The notes under the pieces were generated by a model that was not told the DNA's origin, searched no databases, and saw only the letters and a program-made list of their open reading frames with translations. A DNA stretch of 64,000 bases from an uncultured Candidatus Saccharibacteria bacterium (GTDB lineage: Bacteria; Patescibacteriota; Minisyncoccia; UBA6257; JAUSGH01). The first letter of the stretch is position 1; each line of letters begins with the position of its first letter. The stretch spans positions 120 to 64,119 of the forward strand of contig CAYJQG010000001.1 in assembly GCA_964372325.1 (NCBI GenBank), written 5' to 3'. The position numbers were made by a program, and so were the translations under genes. Below, piece by piece: positions 1-54,371 of this stretch.

Positions 1-221
1 CAGTCCGTTTATCGAAAAAAACAATAAAAATTGAAGGCCGCGTTGAAGAGGCGCTGCCTGCCACAACATTTCGTATAAAGCTCCAAACCGGAGAGGAAAT
101 ATTGGGGCATCTTTCCGGAAAGATGCGGCTGTATTATATTAAAATTCTTCCCGGCGATCGCGTATTGGTTGAGATGAGTGAATATGACAAGGGGAGGGGG
201 AGGATCATCAGGAGATTATAG
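1..221 (+). CDS. infA: translation initiation factor IF-1, 5' end outside window
   Basis: Frame-3 translation ...KIEGRVEEALPATTFRIKLQTGEEILGHLSGKMRLYYIKILPGDRVLVEMSEYDKGRGRIIRRL* matches the IF-1 S1-fold consensus. Stop TAG at 219-221. Position upstream of rpmJ-rpsM is the conserved one. Confidence 0.75.
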   Translation, partial: VRLSKKTIKIEGRVEEALPATTFRIKLQTGEEILGHLSGKMRLYYIKILPGDRVLVEMSEYDKGRGRIIRRL

Positions 222-265
222 GTGTGGCAATGTTGATATCGCGGCTGCGCCTTCGTCGCTTTTCG

Positions 266-285
266 CCTGCCTGCCGGCAGGCAGG
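266..285. repeat. 20-bp GC palindrome CCTGCCTGCCGGCAGGCAGG
   Basis: Perfect self-complementary 20-mer. Recurs at nine or more sites, often nested in family A and family D elements. Confidence 0.8.
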
Positions 286-330
286 TCGGAGTACCGCCGA
301 GGAGGGTACACCTCCTCAAAGCTCCTCGGC
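285..330 (+). repeat. conserved ~45-nt bulged-hairpin motif GGAGTACC-N-GGGTACACCTCCTCAAG, copy 1
   Basis: gtcggagtaccgccgaggagggtacacctcctcaaagctcctcgg. Confidence 0.55.
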
Positions 331-361
331 TCGCTCGCGATCTCAACATTGCATTTAATAG

Positions 362-396
362 ATTTCGTATATTCGTATTTTTTCGTATTTCGTAGC
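362..396. repeat. family A palindromic repeat (TACGAAATACG type), partial arm
   Basis: atttcgtatattcgtattttttcgtatttcgtagc. Abuts the rpmJ start codon. Confidence 0.6.
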
Positions 397-403
397 TTTA
401 TGT

Positions 404-517
404 ATGAAGGTTCGTGCATCCGTAAAAAAAATTTGTAGTAATTGCAAAATGGTACGGCGCAAGTTGCGCTTGTATGTGAGTTGTAAAAATGTTAAACATA
501 AGCAACGACAAGGATAA
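404..517 (+). CDS. rpmJ: 50S ribosomal protein L36 (bL36), below the ORF-track size cutoff
   Basis: Hand translation gives 37 aa [37 protein letters not shown]. This is the canonical L36 zinc-ribbon with C-terminal KHKQRQG. Location between infA and rpsM is the conserved one. Confidence 0.85.
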
Positions 518-524
518 GATTAAA

Positions 525-625
525 TAGCTTATCGCATATCGCAAAACGCATATCGCAAAGTGTTAAAAAAATTGAAATAGCGATAAGCGACGTGCGATAT
601 GCGACACGCGACGTGCTAATAAATT
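525..625 (+). promoter_or_regulatory. family E conserved leader element upstream of rpsM (hairpin GCTTATCGC...GCGATAAGC plus GACGTGC direct repeats)
   Basis: aatagcttatcgcatatcgcaaa...ttgaaatagcgataagcgacgtgcgatatgcgacacgcgacgtgctaataaattATG. About 90 percent identical to the copy upstream of rplQ. Confidence 0.6.
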
Positions 626-1009
626 ATGCGTATCGCAGGTATAAACATTCCCGATAATAAAAAAGTAGCATATGCTCTGCCGTATATTTATGGCGTGGGT
701 CGTGTGCGCGCACAAGAAATTATTAAGGCAACAAATATTAACGGTGAAAAGCGCGCCAAGGAATTAACGCAGGACGAGGTGGGTAAAATTAAGGAATATA
801 TCGAGCGTAATTTTAAAATCGAAGGTGAACTTCGCACCGTAGTACGACAAAATATTTCATTGTTGAAAGACATACAGTCGTATCGCGGCGTGCGACATGC
901 ACGGCACCTCCCAGTACGTGGGCAGCGAACGAAAACTAATTCACGAACCGTACGCGGTAACGTTCGTAAGACCGCAGGTAGTGGCAAGAGAAGGGTGGAT
1001 TTGAAATAA
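626..1009 (+). CDS. rpsM: 30S ribosomal protein S13
   Basis: 127 aa. MRIAGINIP...YRGVRHARHLPVRGQRTKTNSRT is the classic uS13 signature. Confidence 0.95.
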   Translation: MRIAGINIPDNKKVAYALPYIYGVGRVRAQEIIKATNINGEKRAKELTQDEVGKIKEYIERNFKIEGELRTVVRQNISLLKDIQSYRGVRHARHLPVRGQRTKTNSRTVRGNVRKTAGSGKRRVDLK

Positions 1010-1024
1010 AATTAAATAACATAG

Positions 1025-1125
1025 GCTACGAAATACGAAAATATACGAATATACGAAAACGAAAAAAGTTTAATTTCGTATATTCGTAAAAATTTCGTAT
1101 TTCGTAGCTGCGTATTTCGTAGCTG
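1025..1125. repeat. family A palindromic repeat, full copy
   Basis: gctacgaaatacgaaaatatacgaa ... ttcgtatattcgtaaaaatttcgtatttcgtagc, an imperfect ~100-bp palindrome. Between rpsM and rpsK. Confidence 0.8.
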
Positions 1126-2256: not shown

Positions 2257-3057
2257 TTGTTTAAAATTATGAAATTCGCATATTTAAGTGAATCGGTAAC
2301 TATTAAAACAATTAGTGAAAATGACCGCAGTGGTGTATTCGAAATCGAAGGTTTGTATACTGGCTATGGTCTTACCGTGGGTAACGCCTTGCGAAGGGTG
2401 CTCTTGTCTTCAATACCGGGGGCAGCAATTACGCAAGTAAAAATTAAAGGAGTGGGGCATGAGTTTACCACCATACCACATGTCATTGAAGACGTAGTAG
2501 AAATTAGCTTAAACCTTAAGAAGGTGCGTTTCCGCATGCACACCGATGAGCCCCAGACATTATTGTTAAAAATTAAGGGCGAGCACGTGGTAACCGCTAA
2601 TGATATTCAGACTAATGCACATGTTGAAGTGATTAATACAGATGCACACATCGCCACTGTCTCAGAAAAGAGCGGTGAGCTTGAGATGGAATTAACCGTA
2701 GAGCGTGGGCTAGGTTATGTGCCTGTTGAAGCGCGGAAAACAGAGAAGCTTGCCATTGGTGTTATTGCACTCGATGCGATGTTTACTCCAGTTATAAAAG
2801 TAAGTTTGGTTGTAGAGAATATGCGCGTTGAAGATCGCACCGATTATAATTGTCTACGCCTTGCAGTAGAAACTGATGGAAGCTTGACCGCTTCGGCCGC
2901 ACTGCGTAAGGCAAGTAATATATTACAAGATCATTTTGTGAAGATCTCCATGGTAGAAGTAAAAGAATCTGTTGTCGTGGAAAAGCCAGGGGGAGGAAAA
3001 GAAAAAAAGAAGAAAGCAAAAAAACAAAATAGCTTATCGCATATCGCAAAGCGTTAA
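2257..3057 (+). CDS. rpoA: DNA-directed RNA polymerase alpha subunit, N-terminal domain only; Lys-rich tail replaces the alpha-CTD
   Basis: 266 aa. The alpha NTD dimerisation and insert regions are recognisable. The C-terminus ends ...EKPGGGKEKKKKAKKQNSLSHIAKR and runs into an intergenic repeat. No alpha-CTD helix-hairpin-helix region is present. Confidence 0.9.
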   Translation: MFKIMKFAYLSESVTIKTISENDRSGVFEIEGLYTGYGLTVGNALRRVLLSSIPGAAITQVKIKGVGHEFTTIPHVIEDVVEISLNLKKVRFRMHTDEPQTLLLKIKGEHVVTANDIQTNAHVEVINTDAHIATVSEKSGELEMELTVERGLGYVPVEARKTEKLAIGVIALDAMFTPVIKVSLVVENMRVEDRTDYNCLRLAVETDGSLTASAALRKASNILQDHFVKISMVEVKESVVVEKPGGGKEKKKKAKKQNSLSHIAKR

Positions 3058-3116
3058 AAAATTTGAAATAGCGATAAGCGACGTGCAATATGCGACACGC
3101 GACGTGCTAATAAACT
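3037..3116 (+). promoter_or_regulatory. family E conserved leader element upstream of rplQ; overlaps the rpoA 3' end
   Basis: aatagcttatcgcatatcgcaaagcgttaaaaaatttgaaatagcgataagcgacgtgcaatatgcgacacgcgacgtgctaataaactATG. Confidence 0.6.
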
Positions 3117-3461
3117 ATGTTCAGCATTAAACGAAAATTTGGTAAAAAAGTAGGGCCACGGAGACATTTTGTGCGCATCCTTGCGCACAATTTAGTGATG
3201 CACGAGCATATCGAGACAACAGAGCCTCGGGCAAAAGAAATTAGACCGATTGTTGAGAAGTTAGTGACTATTGCACGGCGTGGGAGGCTCGCAGATTTAC
3301 GCTTGTTGTTACAGCGTCTTCCAAAAGAGGCAGCAACAAAATTATATTACGAAATCGGCCCAAAATACAAAGAACGCAAGGGGGGATATTTACGAATTAC
3401 GAAACTTGGCTTAACACGTAAACGTGATGCGGCACGGGTCGCAAAAGTGGAATTCGTTTAA
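3117..3461 (+). CDS. rplQ: 50S ribosomal protein L17
   Basis: 114 aa. HRKRGRKLGRT-like core (FGKKVGPRRHFVRILAHNLVMHEHIETT...GGYLRITKLG). Confidence 0.95.
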   Translation: MFSIKRKFGKKVGPRRHFVRILAHNLVMHEHIETTEPRAKEIRPIVEKLVTIARRGRLADLRLLLQRLPKEAATKLYYEIGPKYKERKGGYLRITKLGLTRKRDAARVAKVEFV

Positions 3462-3465
3462 CATA

Positions 3466-3601
3466 GGCTACTAAATACGCGGCTACGAAATACGAAAATA
3501 TACGCCTGCCTGCCGGCAGGCAGGAATATACGAAAACGAAAAAAGTTTAGTTTCGTATATTCGTAAAGATTTCGTATTTCGTAGCTGCGTATTTCGTAGC
3601 A
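3466..3601. repeat. family A palindromic repeat with nested GC palindrome
   Basis: Same arms as the 1025-1125 copy, with cctgcctgccggcaggcagg inserted centrally. Between rplQ and rplM. Confidence 0.8.
3505..3524. repeat. 20-bp GC palindrome copy
   Basis: cctgcctgccggcaggcagg inside a family A element. Confidence 0.8.
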
Positions 3602-3607
3602 GGGCAT

Positions 3608-3949
3608 ATGGATTACATCATCGATGCACAAAATAAACGACTGGGGAGGATCGCTTCGGAGATAGCGGTTATTTTGCAGGGAAAAAAGAGTGCACGTTAT
3701 GAACCACGTTTGCGCGGCGAAGACCGCGTGATTGTGAAAAATGTGAAGGGTCTAACGGTTTCTGGGGCAAAGGAAGTGAAGAAAATTTATTATCGACACA
3801 CGGGGTACATGGGGCACCTTCGTGAGCGTACATTTGAGCAGGCATTTGCAAAGTCACCTACCGAAGTATTGCGCCGGGCAGTTACGCACATGCTACCCAA
3901 AAATTTTTTACGCGATAAAAGAATGAAAATGTTGAGAATAGAAAATTAA
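3608..3949 (+). CDS. rplM: 50S ribosomal protein L13
   Basis: 113 aa. DAQNKRLGRIASEIAVILQGK...YYRHTGYMGHL matches uL13. Confidence 0.95.
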   Translation: MDYIIDAQNKRLGRIASEIAVILQGKKSARYEPRLRGEDRVIVKNVKGLTVSGAKEVKKIYYRHTGYMGHLRERTFEQAFAKSPTEVLRRAVTHMLPKNFLRDKRMKMLRIEN

Positions 3950-4098: not shown

Positions 4099-4536
4099 AT
4101 GGTAACCACAAAAATAAAAAAAATAGAACAAAAAGAAGAAAAAGCACCACGATATTTTGAGGGTCGTGGTGGCAGAAAAACCGCAATTGCACGGGTGCGT
4201 TTGTATAGCAAGAAAGGAGATGGCGTAGTGGTGAATGGGTTGCCCGTTCAAGAATATTTCAAGCTACCAAAACACCAACAGATAGCCGTCGCGCCAATTG
4301 CAGTGATGAACATGGGTGAGACATTGTCTGCGACAGCACACGTGCGTGGCGGGGGTATTAGTGCTCAAGCAGAGGCAGTACGACATGGCATGAGCATTGC
4401 ACTTACCAAGTTTAATGTGGAATTCCGTAAACGTTTAAGTCGTGTAGGTTTCCTAACCCGCGATGCGCGTGTGGTTGAGCGCAAAAAACCAGGACTTAAA
4501 AAAGCAAGAAAAGCTCCACAATGGGCAAAAAGATAA
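4099..4536 (+). CDS. rpsI: 30S ribosomal protein S9
   Basis: 145 aa. GRGGRKTAIARVRL...GGGISAQAEAVRHGMSIAL...RDARVVERKKPGLKKARKAPQWAKR matches uS9. Confidence 0.95.
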   Translation: MVTTKIKKIEQKEEKAPRYFEGRGGRKTAIARVRLYSKKGDGVVVNGLPVQEYFKLPKHQQIAVAPIAVMNMGETLSATAHVRGGGISAQAEAVRHGMSIALTKFNVEFRKRLSRVGFLTRDARVVERKKPGLKKARKAPQWAKR

Positions 4537-4790: not shown

Positions 4791-5909
4791 TTGATAACCT
4801 CCAATAGTTCGAGGTGCACCGTGCAATTTCAAGATCTCGCCATTGGACAACGTTTTCGTTTTTCCGGAAACGATAATGGCTCGACCCATTCGACAGGCTC
4901 AGGGCGAGCGGGCTCATCACCAGATGTATGGATGAAAGTCCTCATCCCTGAAAAATATCCTGACTCTGGTCTTTGTGGCCCTGAAGAAGATGATATCCCC
5001 AAGGATATCCGCGCCATTCATCTCTCTAATGGAAAATTTGAATATGTTCGTGGAGATACCCTCGTTATTTTGCATACCAAGGAGCAACCTGAGACTCCAA
5101 CTCGTATCGTTCCCGCAGCTCTCTCAGATAAACCCGAGGATGTATTGGTTAATATCAGTTTTCGACTGGAAGCTGTTGAGCGAATATGCGCGAAGCTAGA
5201 ACAAAATGTCGGTATTCGTTCCGTTGCTCAACCTAATTCAGAGATCTTCCCCTTAGCATCTTTACTTCGTCTAACAATGGAACAAAACATTTTTCTCCCC
5301 GAGGACTGGACACAATATTACAGCGTTAACTTTTCAAACATTGCAATTCCCAATTTTCCTTGGTCTGGCTCGCTCCTTAACAGCCCCTGCCCGTTTAATC
5401 CCGACAAACGCATTAAAGACACTCATTTCGCCTTTCTTGGACTACCCGATATTAACGGAGTTCCTCTGACTGTTGCGCAATGGATAAAACTTCACCCACA
5501 AACTGGTCAACCGAAATTCTATCACCATACGAATCCTTGGCACCAAGGTCAACCCTATACCGATAAGATCACGCTACAACCCCGTTGGTACCTTCTCCTT
5601 AAAGAAATTGTCCCGAGCTCCACGGACAGAACTCCTGAAGAACAAGTAGTATTGCTCCCACCGGAATATGAGATTCCTTCCACTATTGCTGAAGTCACGA
5701 AAGATCTTTTTGTTTTCAAAAAAACAGGTATTCGTTCTAATCCATCACAATGGGCAGCTTGTGCAGAGCGAACGATTCAAACTTCGAGCTCGCCTGCTGG
5801 CAACGTCTCGTGTGTCGGCGGCTTCGGCGAGGGCGGCCTCAACGTCAACTACTGGGCCGACAGCCGCCACTTCAGCGTTGGCCTTGGGGCGTCTCGGAAG
5901 CCCGCATAA
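4791..5909 (+). CDS. hypothetical protein; composition differs from neighbours; start codon uncertain (GTG 4818 or ATG ~4931 also possible)
   Basis: 372-aa ORF with no recognisable family. Codon usage is C/T-rich and unlike the flanking ribosomal genes. The 3' end reads through a GC-rich tract. Followed by an intrinsic terminator and a MITE-D copy. Confidence 0.45.
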   Translation: MITSNSSRCTVQFQDLAIGQRFRFSGNDNGSTHSTGSGRAGSSPDVWMKVLIPEKYPDSGLCGPEEDDIPKDIRAIHLSNGKFEYVRGDTLVILHTKEQPETPTRIVPAALSDKPEDVLVNISFRLEAVERICAKLEQNVGIRSVAQPNSEIFPLASLLRLTMEQNIFLPEDWTQYYSVNFSNIAIPNFPWSGSLLNSPCPFNPDKRIKDTHFAFLGLPDINGVPLTVAQWIKLHPQTGQPKFYHHTNPWHQGQPYTDKITLQPRWYLLLKEIVPSSTDRTPEEQVVLLPPEYEIPSTIAEVTKDLFVFKKTGIRSNPSQWAACAERTIQTSSSPAGNVSCVGGFGEGGLNVNYWADSRHFSVGLGASRKPA

Positions 5910-7152: not shown

Positions 7153-7203
7153 AGTATACACAAGAGAAGGTTTAGGGAAGGAGCAGTTTTTTGACGAGAG
7201 TAT

Positions 7204-7338
7204 AGCCACCAACGAAAAAATCCCAAACTTCAAGCATCAAATAACAAATAAATTCCAATTTTTTAAATTCGAATTTATGTTATTGAGTATTATTTGAAAT
7301 TTGGTATTTGAGATTTGGTGTTTATGTTTTTAGTGGCT
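7204..7338. mobile_element. family C MITE-like element (imperfect ~135-bp palindrome centred on AAATTCGAATTT, termini TAGCCACYAACG / CTTTAGTGGCTA)
   Basis: agccaccaacgaaaaaatcccaaacttcaagcatcaaataacaaataaattccaa ... ggtatttgagatttggtgtttatgtttttagtggct. Confidence 0.8.
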
Positions 7339-7459: not shown

Positions 7460-7690
7460 ATGGCGATACTTTCTACACCATTAACGCCACAATTAGAAGA
7501 GTTCGTCGCGTTGTACGTCAAGCGTGGGCGAGCGGCGAATAAAGCTGAGGTTGTGCGCAAAGCGTTGAGGCTGCTTGCCGACGAGGAAGCAATTTTGGAT
7601 ATTCTCCAAGCCGAACGAGAAATTAATAACGGCAAAATATTGCGTGGCGACCTCCGCATGTTAGCGAAGAAAATAACAAAACATGGGTAA
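7460..7690 (+). CDS. type II antitoxin, ribbon-helix-helix (ParD/CopG-like)
   Basis: 76 aa. EEFVALYVKRGRAANKAEVVRKALRLLADEEA is a typical RHH antitoxin. Overlaps the downstream RelE/ParE gene by 8 nt. Confidence 0.75.
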   Translation: MAILSTPLTPQLEEFVALYVKRGRAANKAEVVRKALRLLADEEAILDILQAEREINNGKILRGDLRMLAKKITKHG

Positions 7691-9320: not shown

Positions 9321-9490
9321 GCTACGAAATACGCAGCTACGAAATACGAAATCTTTAAGCCTGCCTATCGGCAGACATGCCTGCCTGCCGGCAGGCAGGA
9401 ATATACGAAACTAAACTTTTTTCGTTCTCGTATATTCGTATATTTTCGTATTTCGTAGCCGCGTATTTCGTAGCTGCGTATTGAGTAGCC
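9321..9490. repeat. family A palindromic repeat with tandem nested GC palindromes
   Basis: gctacgaaatacgcagctacgaaatacgaaa ... cgtatttcgtagccgcgtatttcgtagc. Between murA and mreB. Confidence 0.8.
9360..9399. repeat. tandem GC palindromes
   Basis: cctgcctatcggcagacatg + cctgcctgccggcaggcagg inside a family A element. Confidence 0.8.
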
Positions 9491-9522: not shown

Positions 9523-10533
9523 ATGTTTACTCGAAAGATCGGAATTGATCTCGGTACGGTAAATACCATCGTATTTGTCCCCGGCAAAGGCTTCATCATC
9601 AACGAGCCCACCATCGTGAGCTTAAGCGTGCCCGATAATACGGTGCTCGCAGTGGGGCGTGAAGCGAAAGATATGTTAGGTAGAGCGCCGGCCGATATTA
9701 TTGCATACCGGCCATTAAAAGACGGCGTGATTGCTGATTATTATATTACCCGCGCAATGTTGAAATATTTCATCGCGAAAGCTTGTGGACCGTTTAATAT
9801 CATAAGACCCGAATTGGTTATTTCGGTTCCTGCGGGGATTACAACAACAGAGCGCAGAGCGGTCGTGAATGCCGCAAAAGAAGCTGGTGCGAAAGAAGCA
9901 TATATTGTGCGTGAGCCAATTCTCGCAGCACTGGGCGCTGGTATCCCTATTAACCACCATTCTGGTAATCTGATCATTAATATCGGCGGGGGGACTTCAG
10001 AGGTTGCGGTGGTGGCACTCGGAAACATTGTTTCGTGGGCAAGTTTGCGTGTGGCGGGGAATAAATTCGACCAAGCGATCACCGACTATATTAAGAAAAA
10101 ATATTCATTGGCTATCGGAGAACAAACTGCAGAAAATTTAAAAATCGCAATTGGGGCAGCGCTCCCATCGAAAGAAAAGCTCGAGCATCAGGTGCGTGGT
10201 CGCGATTTAGTGTATGGTCTGCCACGCGATATTACGGTGAATTCGAACGAAATTGCAGAGAGTTTGAACCCGCACCTTATAGAGATTGCAACTGCAGTAC
10301 AGAATGTTTTTAATACCACGCCGCCCGAGCTTGTCGCAGATATTATGGAGAAAGGAATTATTGTTTCAGGTGGCGGTGCGCACTTACGGTTTATTGATGA
10401 GTTTTTTAAACGTATGACAGGGGTTGAGACATATATTGCAGAGGAGCCGCTATTTTGCGTAGCAAAGGGCGCGGGGTTGGTGTTGAATCATTTAGATGTT
10501 TATAAAAGACTCCTCCTTAATAAGCGATTTTAA
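9523..10533 (+). CDS. mreB: rod shape-determining protein MreB (paralog 1)
   Basis: 336 aa. Actin-fold ATPase motifs IGIDLGTVNT, GGGTSEVAV, GGGA. Confidence 0.9.
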   Translation: MFTRKIGIDLGTVNTIVFVPGKGFIINEPTIVSLSVPDNTVLAVGREAKDMLGRAPADIIAYRPLKDGVIADYYITRAMLKYFIAKACGPFNIIRPELVISVPAGITTTERRAVVNAAKEAGAKEAYIVREPILAALGAGIPINHHSGNLIINIGGGTSEVAVVALGNIVSWASLRVAGNKFDQAITDYIKKKYSLAIGEQTAENLKIAIGAALPSKEKLEHQVRGRDLVYGLPRDITVNSNEIAESLNPHLIEIATAVQNVFNTTPPELVADIMEKGIIVSGGGAHLRFIDEFFKRMTGVETYIAEEPLFCVAKGAGLVLNHLDVYKRLLLNKRF

Positions 10534-15520: not shown

Positions 15521-15641
15521 TAGCTACGAAATACGAAAAAATACGAATATACGAAAAACGATACCGCCGATTCGTATATTCCTGCCTATCGGCAGGCAGG
15601 CCGGTCTGCCGATAGGCAGGCGTAAAAATTTCGTATTTCGC
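15521..15641. repeat. family A palindromic repeat with nested GC palindromes
   Basis: ctacgaaatacgaaaaaatacgaatatacgaaaa ... tttcgtatttcgcagc. Confidence 0.7.
15581..15622. repeat. tandem GC palindromes
   Basis: cctgcctatcggcaggcagg + ccggtctgccgataggcagg. Confidence 0.75.
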
Positions 15642-15647
15642 AGCCGC

Positions 15648-16103
15648 CTAAAACCACCCCAACAAGAAATCTTCCAGTACATGTGAAATGGCTGAAACCG
15701 CAAGGCCTAGTGTGAGTGCCATACGTCGCATTCGCGCCTCATCAATTGCACGGTTGCCACATAAGAGTACAATAAAGAATCCAATACAGTAAAAGAAAAT
15801 GATAGTTGCGATGGCAAACCAAGCGGGATGCAGCACGCGTCCATTGGGGTGGCCCCATAACCTTGTCCAATGGTCGGTGATGTCAACTAAATTATTGATG
15901 AGCCCACCATAGAACGCCCAAAGGAATAATGAGTAATCGCCGGTTTTAAACAATTGAATCCCGCGGATGTTCAAGACCATTGCGACAAGCATGAGCGTTA
16001 TCAGTGTAACCCAAGTGCCCATAGCGTTATGAGAAAGTACAGCTTTAACCGCCCATTCTAAATCAATCTTCGGTGGGTTCCACGTAGGCAACCAGTCAAA
16101 CAT
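15648..16103 (-). CDS. integral membrane protein (possible DUF457-like metal-dependent hydrolase)
   Basis: 151 aa. Several TM helices and conserved His/Asp residues. Weak family call. Confidence 0.45.
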   Translation of the reverse strand: MFDWLPTWNPPKIDLEWAVKAVLSHNAMGTWVTLITLMLVAMVLNIRGIQLFKTGDYSLFLWAFYGGLINNLVDITDHWTRLWGHPNGRVLHPAWFAIATIIFFYCIGFFIVLLCGNRAIDEARMRRMALTLGLAVSAISHVLEDFLLGWF

Positions 16104-32804: not shown

Positions 32805-32865
32805 TAATTTTTTTCAAAACGCAATCATAAGATGATCGCGCGGAGCCCCGATGAACCTGCCTGCC

Positions 32866-32885
32866 GGCAGGCAGGGGGGCGACAA
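32866..32885. repeat. GC palindrome copy between rpsF and ssb
   Basis: cctgcctgccggcaggcagg. Confidence 0.8.
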
Positions 32886-35878: not shown

Positions 35879-35969
35879 TAACCATGCGTGGATTTGGGCC
35901 TGTAGTTTATGTGGTAAAACATCGCCCTTGACAAGCGACAAAGCGGGTTCAAGCCCCGCCGGGTCCTAG

Positions 35970-36237
35970 ACCCTATCTGAAGAATATACCGAATCGCGTT
36001 GCGAGAAATTTTTAAATATCGTAAGGCGCGAGAAGCGCAGTGTGCCAATAGGCACATGAGCGACGAGCAACGAAACGATTTTTAAAAATTACCGCAACCC
36101 TTCGGGATACGGCCAATTTCTTAAATTACTGCGTCGCTCGTCCTCGAAGTATCTACTGATACGTCCTCGTTCTCGACTTCTTGTACTTTAAAAAATTGGC
36201 CAGTATCGCGATCGGTATATTCTTCAGATAGGGTCTG
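35970..36237. mobile_element. family H MITE-like element with perfect 24-bp TIRs, ending 3 bp before tRNA-Pro
   Basis: gaccctatctgaagaatataccga ... tcggtatattcttcagatagggtc. Confidence 0.8.
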
Positions 36238-36240
36238 CAT

Positions 36241-47723: not shown

Positions 47724-47882
47724 TAGTATTCGCCACTTATGATATAGCCACCAAAGATACAAGCACCAAATCTCAAATACCAAATTCCAAATAATATTTA
47801 ATAACTTAAATTCGAATTTAAAAAATTAGAATTTATTTGTTATTTGATGCTTGAAGTTTGGGATTTTTCCATTAGTGGCTAG
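47722..47882. mobile_element. family C MITE-like element, inverted relative to the 45022-45192 copy
   Basis: gtagtattcgccacttatgatatagccaccaaagatacaagcaccaaatctcaaatacc .... Begins with the dnaG stop codon TAG. Confidence 0.85.
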
Positions 47883-47911
47883 TGTCTAACCCTAATCCCT
47901 CATCAATACTT

Positions 47912-49138
47912 ATGTCATCAAAAGCAATAATAAAAAAGAAAAAGGTACAGCGCACGGGAAAACAGAAAAAAAGATTGGTGCAGGGCGCGCAGAAAGTAAA
48001 GAAAGCAGTGAGGGTGAAATTGGTAAGCAAAAAACATAAATTGAATAAGAAGGAAGCTGCACGGCAGAAGCAAAACTTGAGCCAACTCGATGAGTTAATT
48101 AGCCGTGGAAAGGGGAGGGGGTTTGTGACCGATGGAGAAGTACTCCACTATTTTCCTCGCGTGGAAAACGACATTAAGTTTCTCGAAGAGGTCTATGCGC
48201 GTCTTGAAGAAGTTGGTATGAAAGTGGTAGAAACAAGCCAACTCATCGAAACACCGAAAGAAGAGATTAGCGTAAAGGAACTTGAAGAGGCCACGCAGTT
48301 CGAAGGCGAACTCCCCGATGCCGTGCAAATGTATTTAAAAGAAATTGGTAAGACGCAACTTTTAACCGGAGAAGACGAAAAAGAATTAGCCAAACGCGTA
48401 GAATCTGGCGACGAAGAAGCGCGCAAGAAATTTATTCAAGCAAATTTACGGTTAGTGGTTTCGATTGCAAAGCGTTATGTCAATCGTTCACCAAATTTAA
48501 GCATCTTGGACCTCGTGCAGGAGGGGAATATTGGCCTCTCGAGAGCGGTCATAAAATTTGACTACCGAAGAGGTTTCAAGTTTTCGACATATGCAACATG
48601 GTGGATCCGCCAAGCAATTACCCGTGCATTAGCCGACCAGTCGCGTACCATTCGTATCCCGGTACACATGGTCGAAGTAATTTCGAAGTACACTCAGGCA
48701 AAACGACGATTGCTCCAAGAGCTTGGTCGCGAGCCATTACCCGAAGAGATCGCAATTGAGTTGAATATGCCACTCGAGAAGGTGCACCATATTCAAAAAA
48801 TATCTCAAGAAGTCATTTCACTAGAGTCGCCAGTTGGAGACGACGACGAAGACTCAACCTTGTCAGAGTTTATTCCCGACGAACGAAACCTTACACCTTC
48901 TCAAACCGCCTCTCAGGCGTTATTGGGTGACAAAATTCGAGAAATTTTAATTGATCTCACGCCTCGCGAACAAGAAATTTTAAAAATGCGTTTTGGGCTA
49001 GAAGATGGCATTACACATACCCTAGAAGAAGTGGGGCATGAATTTGGCGTGACAAGAGAGCGCATTCGACAAATCGAAGCGAAGGCATTAGGAAGGATTA
49101 AGATACACGAGAAGGCTCATATGCTCGAGGGCTACTAG
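47912..49138 (+). CDS. rpoD: RNA polymerase sigma factor RpoD (primary sigma-70)
   Basis: Regions 1.2 to 4.2 present ([52 protein letters not shown]). Start at ATG 47912; GTG 47882 lies in the MITE. Stop TAG overlaps the next MITE-C copy. Confidence 0.9.
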
Positions 49139-52496: not shown

Positions 52497-52760
52497 GCAT
52501 ATACGGGCCGCCGCAAGGGGAAGATGTCGGTCCCTACGGCCGGGTTTACCGCCGGGTGCCGGGCGCGGGCGGTCTGCTCGGGCGGTGGCTTCGACTTCAG
52601 CCTCGGCGATACCAGGGGTGGCTACGAAGCTTTCTTCTCCTTCTGCGACGTTGAATAGTTCTTAGAAACTTAAATGCTTGAAAATCTTTGGTTTTTGACC
52701 CTTTGAGCCTTTGTTCCCAGTTAGTTGGTGGACGAGGGCTCTTTTTTATTCATGATGGTT

Positions 52761-52798
52761 TTACTAAACAAGTTGACGATCGTCAACTTGTTTAGTAA
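52761..52798. repeat. 38-nt perfect palindrome centred on ACGATCGT
   Basis: ttactaaacaagttgacgatcgtcaacttgtttagtaa, downstream of alaS. Confidence 0.85.
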
Positions 52799-52879
52799 AT
52801 GTTGCAATTTAGTTTTTGTTATGGTATGATGAGCCGCAGTGCATTGGCATGGTTTTTATTATGAGGAGTGGCTTGATGT

Positions 52880-52925
52880 CTCGGCGCTACATGCTTTGGT
52901 TTTAGTATTGGCGTGAGGGGTTACT
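52880..52925. repeat. second copy of the family I arm motif GCTTTGGTTTTAGTATTGGYGTGAGGGGTTAC
   Basis: gtctcggcgctacatgctttggttttagtattggcgtgaggggttac. Directly upstream of the consensus promoter at 52936. Confidence 0.6.
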
Positions 52926-52935
52926 TGGCCTGGAT

Positions 52936-52964
52936 TTGACAGAAAATACTAGCAATGGTATAAT
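52936..52964 (+). promoter_or_regulatory. consensus sigma70 promoter (TTGACA-17-TATAAT) for the 53018 gene
   Basis: ggatTTGACAgaaaatactagcaatggTATAATag. Confidence 0.7.
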
Positions 52965-53017
52965 AGATTGGTTGTTTGAAACTGGAAACGCCAAGTCCAA
53001 AAAAGAAGGAGGCTCGC

Positions 53018-54186: not shown

Positions 54187-54371
54187 CTAGACTCGGCTCC
54201 CGATAACATTTCATCTCTTTTTTATGAATTTCGGCTACGACATCCGCGAAAAAGATTCAGTAGATACACCGTATATACTTCATCTTTTTCGTCTCGTCTC
54301 GCCTGCCTGCCGGCAGGCAGGCTCAAAATTCATAAAAAATAGCTCGAAAGCTTATCGGGAGCCGAGTCTGC
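54187..54371. mobile_element. family D MITE-like element, complete
   Basis: TIR tagactcggctcccgataa / ttatcgggagccgagtctg. Interior carries cctgcctgccggcaggcagg and gctcaaaattcataaaaaatagctcgaaagc. Confidence 0.85.
54302..54321. repeat. GC palindrome copy
   Basis: cctgcctgccggcaggcagg inside a family D element. Confidence 0.8.

Follow-up and report, generated by a model that had tools for sequence, protein, structure and literature searches.

The first 4.6 kb of the 64-kb stretch of Patescibacteria DNA analyzed here (the window, which derives from a metagenome contig) form a standard alpha-operon region, in which Pfam identifies infA, rpmJ, rpsM, rpsK, rpsD, rpoA, rplQ, rplM, and rpsI in that order. 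Two spacers of this operon, those preceding rpsM and rplQ, hold copies of a palindromic element that we call element E. A sequence-only reading of this DNA had proposed that E is a conserved leader, perhaps an autoregulatory site bound by ribosomal protein S4 or L17, or else a promoter. The results described here argue that E is instead a repeat private to this genome. The genes and the two copies of E are arranged as follows.

3..221, plus strand: 3′ part of infA (IF-1), clipped by the window edge (Pfam PF01176, E=4.9e-24)
404..517, plus strand: rpmJ, ribosomal protein L36, 37 amino acids (Pfam PF00444 Ribosomal_L36, E=5.1e-17, 62.1 bits, cutoff 26.1)
about 523-625, plus strand: element E copy 1, filling the rpmJ-rpsM spacer up to the rpsM ATG
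527..561, plus strand: E copy 1, 5′ array of 7-nt words, GCTTATC GCATATC GCAAAAC GCATATC GCAAAGT, two words more than in copy 2
580..616, plus strand: E copy 1, 3′ array of 7-nt words, GC GATAAGC GACGTGC GATATGC GACACGC GACGTGC, the inverted counterpart of the 5′ array
626..1009, plus strand: rpsM (S13; Pfam PF00416, E=1.8e-31)
1133-1621: rpsK (Pfam)
1625-2242: rpsD (Pfam)
2269..3057, plus strand: rpoA, N-terminal domains only (Pfam)
about 3028-3116, plus strand: element E copy 2, starting within the rpoA reading frame and reaching the rplQ ATG
3117..3461, plus strand: rplQ (L17; Pfam PF01196, E=1.7e-27)
3608-3949: rplM (Pfam)
4099-4536: rpsI (Pfam)

Over 77 nt, blastn aligns the two copies of E at 96.1% identity (E=7e-33), and identity is 91% over 91 ungapped nt; the copies differ at several positions, and copy 1 has 14 nt more than copy 2. 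Both carry the arms GCTTATCGC and GCGATAAGC, located at 527 and 580 in copy 1 and at 3032 and 3071 in copy 2, and each contains GACGTGC twice. The hairpin, the GACGTGC repeats, the position before rpsM and rplQ, and the overlap with the rpoA stop codon had all been described accurately in the sequence-only reading. Each half of E is an array of heptamers. The 5′ half has the general form GCTTATC GCATATC (GCAAAAC GCATATC) GCAAAGY, and the 3′ half consists of the word GCNNNTC inverted; a search of the window for five consecutive GCNNNTC words matched only the 580..616 array, on the minus strand. The 14-nt difference between the copies equals exactly two heptamers, and a whole-word insertion or deletion of this kind is, judging from the sequences, the signature of slippage. 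An inverted-repeat pair within E (I20) has 30-nt arms with 80% complementarity. With its inverted heptamer arrays at 527-561 and 580-616, E resembles REP and REPIN elements in being a short, imperfect extragenic palindrome with two inverted units.

No third copy of E, and no E-like heptamer array, was found elsewhere in the 64 kb. Three sub-patterns of E, for which 0.00-0.70 matches are expected in shuffled sequences, gave good matches only at the two copies. Exact-match scans for blocks of E, which are insensitive to diverged copies, returned 3 matches in genome_contigs, 2 in metagenome_contigs, and 11 and 4 in viral_contigs; all are chance matches, none of which extends past its 16-20-nt seed, and the seeds with an identifiable source came from unrelated taxa or from other coding sequence.

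The position of copy 2 carries a signature of insertion. The rpoA stop codon (3055-3057) sits in the hairpin loop of this copy, and RpoA ends here in ...KKKKAKKQ-NSLSHIAKR, with the last nine residues (NSLSHIAKR) and the stop codon encoded by E. In the 21 relatives whose sequences we read, the lysine-rich RpoA tail ends without the NSLSHIAKR extension. We suggest that two spacers, each probably only about 4-10 nt long in the ancestor, received E by insertion, one insertion falling just after the rpmJ stop codon and the other just before the original rpoA stop codon, and that because of the latter position nine additional residues of RpoA and its present stop codon come from E. Since an element placed in a spacer of a few nucleotides must touch both the preceding stop codon and the next start codon, E seems to be positioned exactly before each ATG. 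Apart from its altered end, RpoA is only ~250 amino acids long in the window and in all listed relatives (P0001-P0120); Pfam finds the N-terminal and insert domains in the window protein, followed by the lysine-rich tail, and no alpha C-terminal domain.

We compared the operon in ten Patescibacteria relatives (L002, L003, and L010-L017), in which rpoA is 73-82% identical, 82% being the value for the nearest relatives on record, and E is absent from all ten. Four of these relatives (L010, L013, L016, and L017) have compact operons that lack hairpins, with spacers of 1-42 nt. In L010, the rpoA of which is 82% identical, all spacers are 3-12 nt, including 4 nt between rpmJ and rpsM and 9 nt between rpoA and rplQ; in L013, L016, and L017 these two spacers are 2-25 nt, the rpoA-rplQ spacer being 2, 6, and 25 nt, respectively. 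As compact relatives do without such elements, the hairpins are additions to the operon and are not essential. The other six relatives (L002, L003, L011, L012, L014, and L015) contain hairpins in various operon spacers that are unrelated in sequence to E but constructed in the same way, with arms of repeated short words, many of them 7-mers (CGCTAAC or CATTAAC, for example). E is thus conserved within this contig only, and its description as a conserved leader does not hold.

These hairpins are also far less stable in evolution than the genes between them. Although L012 and L014 are 86-92% identical in coding DNA, no pair of their spacers has three or more 9-mers in common, and in L002 and L015 (coding DNA 81-84% identical), one hairpin family occupies the rpsD-rpoA spacer in one genome and the rpsK-rpsD spacer in the other. 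We conclude from these two contrasts that the elements are replaced and relocated at a much higher rate than the genes. The same two comparisons reveal the variable distribution among close genomes that characterizes REP and REPIN elements.

Neighboring spacers of one genome commonly carry one family, as seen in the window, L003, L012, and L014. In the window, E occurs in two spacers, while a second family, D3, lies between rpsM and rpsK and between rplQ and rplM, with a half copy before rpmJ. L003 has two families, each in two spacers (infA-rpmJ with rpoA-rplQ, and rpmJ-rpsM with rpsD-rpoA). That E precedes rpsM as well as rplQ is an example of such local family sharing. In L012, two halves of one inverted repeat (7168-7218 and 7561-7652, with 23 inverted 9-mers in common) flank the whole of rplM, making the gene the "loop" of a split hairpin.

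Hairpins of this type are abundant throughout the window. Intergenic DNA makes up 16.4% of its length, and 34 of the 45 spacers of at least 60 nt fold with z<=-3, whereas none of 40 coding segments of matched length does so. Tandem short words, in many cases 7-mers, typically make up the arms, and the other families are present in 3-7 copies at non-ribosomal loci. Counts for the sister families D2 and D3 range from 4 to 7 in the window, with six copies of D2 and at least six of D3, some of the latter adjoining murA/mreB and rpsO; further families include the TTTCTAAT family.

E is among the weaker of these hairpins. Copy 1 folds with a 12-bp UCGCAUAUCGCA/UGCGAUAUGCGA stem (-39 kcal/mol, z=-2.9) and copy 2 with a 9-bp GCUUAUCGC/GCGAUAAGC stem (-24.7 kcal/mol, z=-1.4). 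The near-identity of the words permits more than one pairing register between the arms, and the lowest-energy folds of the two copies differ. The single difference between the copies that falls within a stem (G595 in copy 1, A in copy 2) creates an A-C mismatch on the sense strand. In both copies, the ~12 nt before the AUG are A/U-rich and unpaired and contain no Shine-Dalgarno sequence. Covariation is uninformative for E, as there are two near-identical copies.

Could E nonetheless regulate the genes that follow it? Copy 1 lies directly upstream of rpsM, the place of the S4 operator in the E. coli alpha operon, and a full-length match to the Rfam family Alpha_RBS (RF00140), the only relevant one at permissive thresholds on the two copies, was obtained at 531-655; moreover, the 60 nt before the AUG are common to both copies, as might be expected if E were an mRNA operator through which S4 or L17 represses translation of rpsM and rplQ. 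The Alpha_RBS match scores 29.3 bits (E=7.8e-4), below the gathering threshold of 38, and a scan of the whole window at that threshold gave no match to the family. Most of the matched columns are the first rpsM codons. In a control scan of six relatives, Alpha_RBS scored 25-29 bits over just 32 nt at the rpsM start (28.6 bits in L002, and 25.2 bits in L010 despite its 4-nt rpmJ-rpsM spacer). Because relatives without the leader score alike, we attribute the match to the codons of the universally conserved S13 N terminus and not to an S4 operator. Copy 2 has no Alpha_RBS match at E<=10, E is missing from ten operons with orthologous S4 and L17, and the copies differ both in their lowest-energy folds and by the A-C mismatch. 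An operator for either protein is therefore very unlikely, and there is no support for a nested pseudoknot of the kind that binds S4 and traps the 30S subunit in the E. coli alpha operon. Alternatively, E could act as DNA, either as an internal promoter or as an array of 7-bp sites through which a transcription factor would regulate rpsM and rplQ together. The 3′ half of E has five GCGA occurrences spaced strictly 7 nt apart, a TTGAAA hexamer is found at 571-576, and a primary sigma-70 gene is in the window (47882-49138). A consensus scan for -35 and -10 hexamers separated by 16-18 nt found no sigma-70-like promoter in either copy (518-625 and 3028-3116), and by inspection no acceptable -10 hexamer lies 16-18 nt past TTGAAA; the 5 kb scanned contain seven promoter-like sites compared with the 10.7 expected in shuffled sequences. 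A period of 7 bp is out of step with the helical repeat, and other word-hairpin families, both here and in related genomes, are equally periodic with unrelated words, which points to a mutational process and not to a binding site that they have in common. As the relatives also lack a common motif before rpsM or rplQ, a role at the DNA level is quite improbable. We also found no intrinsic terminator (a GC-rich stem followed by a T run) on the plus strand of E.

Another possibility is that the two copies are a functional pair that brackets rpsM-rpsK-rpsD-rpoA and is selected to stay alike, for example because one trans-acting factor recognizes both copies or because the block is processed in a coordinated way. 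Within each of three genomes (that of the window, L012, and L014), the rpmJ-rpsM spacer matches the rpoA-rplQ spacer in family, while the families differ between genomes. Since L012 and L014 are close relatives, there are about two independent cases, set against L003, which pairs other spacers, and L002, which has no such pair; four relatives lack elements altogether. Chance sharing is likely given 3-6 filled spacers and 2-3 families per operon, and gene conversion between nearby copies would explain similarity within a genome. We consider a functional pair rather improbable and regard the same-family pairing at these two positions as a lead, not a finding. In a broader version of this idea, which we think unlikely, the word-hairpins would be an undescribed, fast-evolving system of this Patescibacteria clade that is kept alike at particular spacer pairs and used by the cell. 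Families would colonize the few-nucleotide spacers of essential operons and be fully replaced between genomes ~89% identical in coding DNA, and one trans-acting factor or nuclease would recognize the pair and thereby fix the stoichiometric ratio of the rpsM-rpoA block to rplQ, with E as the current version of the site. Finally, as the contig was assembled from a metagenome and repeats can cause wrong joins, the duplication of E could be an artefact of assembly. The canonical gene order across both copies, which is the same in all ten relatives, the several differences and 14-nt indel between the copies, and the intact flanking reading frames make this extremely unlikely.

We therefore favor an interpretation in which E, some 90-100 nt long, is a young palindromic repeat specific to this genome and similar to REP, REPIN, and ERIC elements; it occupies two operon spacers and is probably at most a generic mRNA stem-loop. 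In this Patescibacteria lineage, intergenic hairpins made of short repeated words form a large population, to which E would belong. The inverted arrays of GCNNNTC and GANNNGC words that make up the arms of E allow alternative pairings and would gain or lose whole words at a time. Short-range copying may have produced the two copies, which lie within one operon at a distance of 2.5 kb, as recent duplicates, or gene conversion may have homogenized them. E would be co-transcribed with the operon. In the mRNA, its stem-loop (9 to about 21 bp) would stop 21 nt or more short of the AUG and leave free an A/U-rich start region that lacks a Shine-Dalgarno sequence. By analogy with REP, BIME, and ERIC elements, it may be a barrier to 3′-5′ exonucleases or a site for double-strand-specific processing, and it may influence translational coupling. 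As a PNPase gene is in the window (58619-60718), a 3′ exonuclease that such stem-loops could block is present. We are much more confident that E is not a conserved S4 or L17 leader than we are in any such role in RNA.

Several observations weigh against parts of this interpretation. E does not resemble a MITE, in that its ends (AAATAGCTTATC... and ...GACGTGCTAATAAA) do not form terminal inverted repeats, and by inspection neither copy has a duplicated flank that could be a target-site duplication. No mobilizing enzyme is apparent, as none of the 54 non-operon open reading frames of the ~64-kb window has a transposase or RAYT-like Pfam domain. Both copies seen within the 64 kb precede ribosomal protein genes and none lies at a non-ribosomal locus, and the family common to the rpmJ-rpsM and rpoA-rplQ spacers of L012 and L014 leaves room for a position-specific link. 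With respect to a role in RNA, 30 co-directional spacers show no bias toward folding of the sense strand (comparing sense and antisense folds and G-U counts; Wilcoxon p=0.34), and both copies of E fold slightly better as antisense. Given the lack of sense-strand bias and the A-C mismatch, there is no positive evidence that E is kept as an RNA structure.

The region also contains other repeats. The D3 word-hairpins and a perfect 20-nt palindrome, CCTGCCTGCCGGCAGGCAGG, map to the following positions.

227..355, no strand assigned: GC-rich nested palindromic element in the infA-rpmJ spacer, with terminal inverted repeats GCAATGTTGAKATCGCG, containing CCTGCCTGCCGGCAGGCAGG at 266-285
363..396, plus strand: right arm only of a D3 word-hairpin (D3/D4/D10; the TTTCGTATTTCGTAGC family, called family A in the sequence-only reading)
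1021..1123, no strand assigned: D3 word-hairpin after rpsM, 97% identical to 3524-3600; spacer fold z=-9.4
3467..3600, no strand assigned: D3 word-hairpin after rplQ, with a clean 20-nt palindrome insertion at 3505-3524; z=-15
9321-9489, 15533-15650, 57392-57500, and 57768-57919: other D3 sites (general form of the family, GCTACGAAATACG...CGTATTTCGTAGC)
266-285, 3505-3524, 9380-9399, 32856-32875, and 54302-54321: exact sites of CCTGCCTGCCGGCAGGCAGG
6099, 6119, 12011, 15581, and 28088: sites of CCTGCCTGCCGGCAGGCAGG with 1-3 mismatches

The infA-rpmJ spacer (222-403) folds with -70.5 kcal/mol (z=-5.8) and has 17-33 direct 9-mers in common with the D3 spacers. Its family A right arm, the left arm of which is missing, had been described as abutting the rpmJ start codon; it does lie near the start codon, yet it ends 7 nt upstream of the ATG, so strict abutment does not apply. 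D3 is older than E, since its TTCGTATATTCGTAA words recur in L012 spacers. Each of rpsM and rplQ has E on its 5′ flank and D3 on its 3′ flank, and rpsO lies between two D3 elements.

The CCTGCCTGCCGGCAGGCAGG palindrome occurs about 10 times in 64 kb, where 0 occurrences are expected. Every placed copy is intergenic, most are embedded in another hairpin element, and a comparison of the first two D3 copies shows the palindrome as a clean 20-nt insertion in copy 2. An exact match also occurs in L002 (8372-8391), a relative with coding DNA only ~70% identical; because it is unchanged at this distance, the palindrome is far better conserved than the word-hairpins. Speculatively, the sequence could belong with iterated palindromes such as HIP or uptake sequences.

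Two other spacers of the window stand out. The spacer at 56059-56290, upstream of the S1 gene (56291-57391), folds with -112.5 kcal/mol in the sense orientation versus -88.3 kcal/mol in antisense and has 10 versus 0 G-U pairs, as one would expect for a structured RNA and not for a DNA palindrome; a segment of ~35 nt is in common with the spacer after alaS (within 52497-52975). Between tRNA-Ser(TGA) and tRNA-Pro(GGG), at 35896-36312, there is a near-perfect hairpin of ~270 nt.

As for the genes of the region, the sequence-only reading had found by hand a 37-amino-acid L36 gene that completes the infA-rpmJ-rpsM order. Both the Pfam match and the 37-amino-acid orthologues at the equivalent position in six relatives confirm this assignment, and the gene is ordinary. 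In L013, rpmJ is not between infA and rpsM and lies instead at 9707-9820, downstream of murA and ~5 kb away. In L013, L016, and L017, murA is at most ~1 kb downstream of rpsI; in the window, an open reading frame of 372 amino acids with no Pfam match (4791-5909) is found between rpsI and an S49 peptidase gene, together with other extra genes. The first 989 nt of L014 (1-989), ~3 kb upstream of infA, contain bAvd and reverse-transcriptase genes typical of a diversity-generating retroelement.

These results have consequences for annotation. E should not be annotated as an S4 or L17 leader, and the Alpha_RBS near-match is a reminder that an apparent match to an RNA family can arise from conserved first codons. 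In full-text searches of the literature, we came across no account of palindromic or REP-like repeats in Patescibacteria. In what is a small genome, about 16% of the window is given to hairpin repeats, which enter ribosomal protein operons, change the end of a protein (nine additional residues in RpoA), and turn over faster than the surrounding genes. They may bear on how repeats spread without a visible transposase and on whether repeats shape mRNA processing in organisms in which gene regulation is almost unknown.

How does E compare with known systems? The arrays of the TIGR-Tas systems were considered as a candidate and rejected: these have a period of about 36 and box C/D motifs (PMC12045711). 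The period of E is 7 nt, not about 36, no TGATGA or CTGA is present on either of its strands, and no Nop-domain protein or Tas gene is among the open reading frames of the window. With the E. coli S4 operator (RF00140), E has in common its location directly upstream of rpsM and a hairpin before the start codon; it is unlike this operator in failing the Rfam threshold, in supporting no pseudoknot, in not being conserved in relatives, and in occurring also before rplQ. In phage T7 early mRNA, the intercistronic RNase III sites are stable hairpins between cistrons. The D3 elements, with stems of 30-45 bp, resemble these sites, which may by analogy serve as a model for the splitting of a polycistronic mRNA. 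E differs from them in that its stems are short and interrupted, and no RNase III gene was seen in the window.

Rickettsia palindromic elements insert within open reading frames and are translated along their length. E is similar in being a palindromic repeat that is in frame in a gene, where it adds nine residues and a stop codon to RpoA; unlike the Rickettsia elements, it is mostly intergenic and clips the last codons. The ERIC/IRU elements of enterobacteria and the BOX elements of pneumococci are transcribed, intergenic, imperfect palindromes of ~100 nt that are modular, vary in unit number, and are conserved across species. The two-word difference between the copies of E recalls this unit-number variation; E is otherwise unrelated in sequence to ERIC and BOX and is private to one genome.

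The closest parallels are with the REP, BIME, and REPIN elements of proteobacteria. A REPIN consists of two inverted REPs that form a hairpin of about 90 bp (PMC3337134). The arms of E differ in being arrays of 7-nt words, not two REP copies, and E has an extra unpaired tail of 3′ words. REPs and REPINs are dispersed through a genome in many copies; of E, two copies were seen in the 64 kb. The host of E also differs, being represented by a Patescibacteria metagenome-assembled genome. RAYT, an HUH/Y1 transposase, is typically flanked by REP or REPIN repeats, and none was found in the window. Like the REP, BIME, and REPIN elements, E is about 90-100 nt long, extragenic, imperfectly palindromic, and located within operons, and it belongs to genome-specific families, the distribution of which shifts between close relatives. 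These elements have been proposed to act as mRNA stem-loops, and we propose that E may do likewise.

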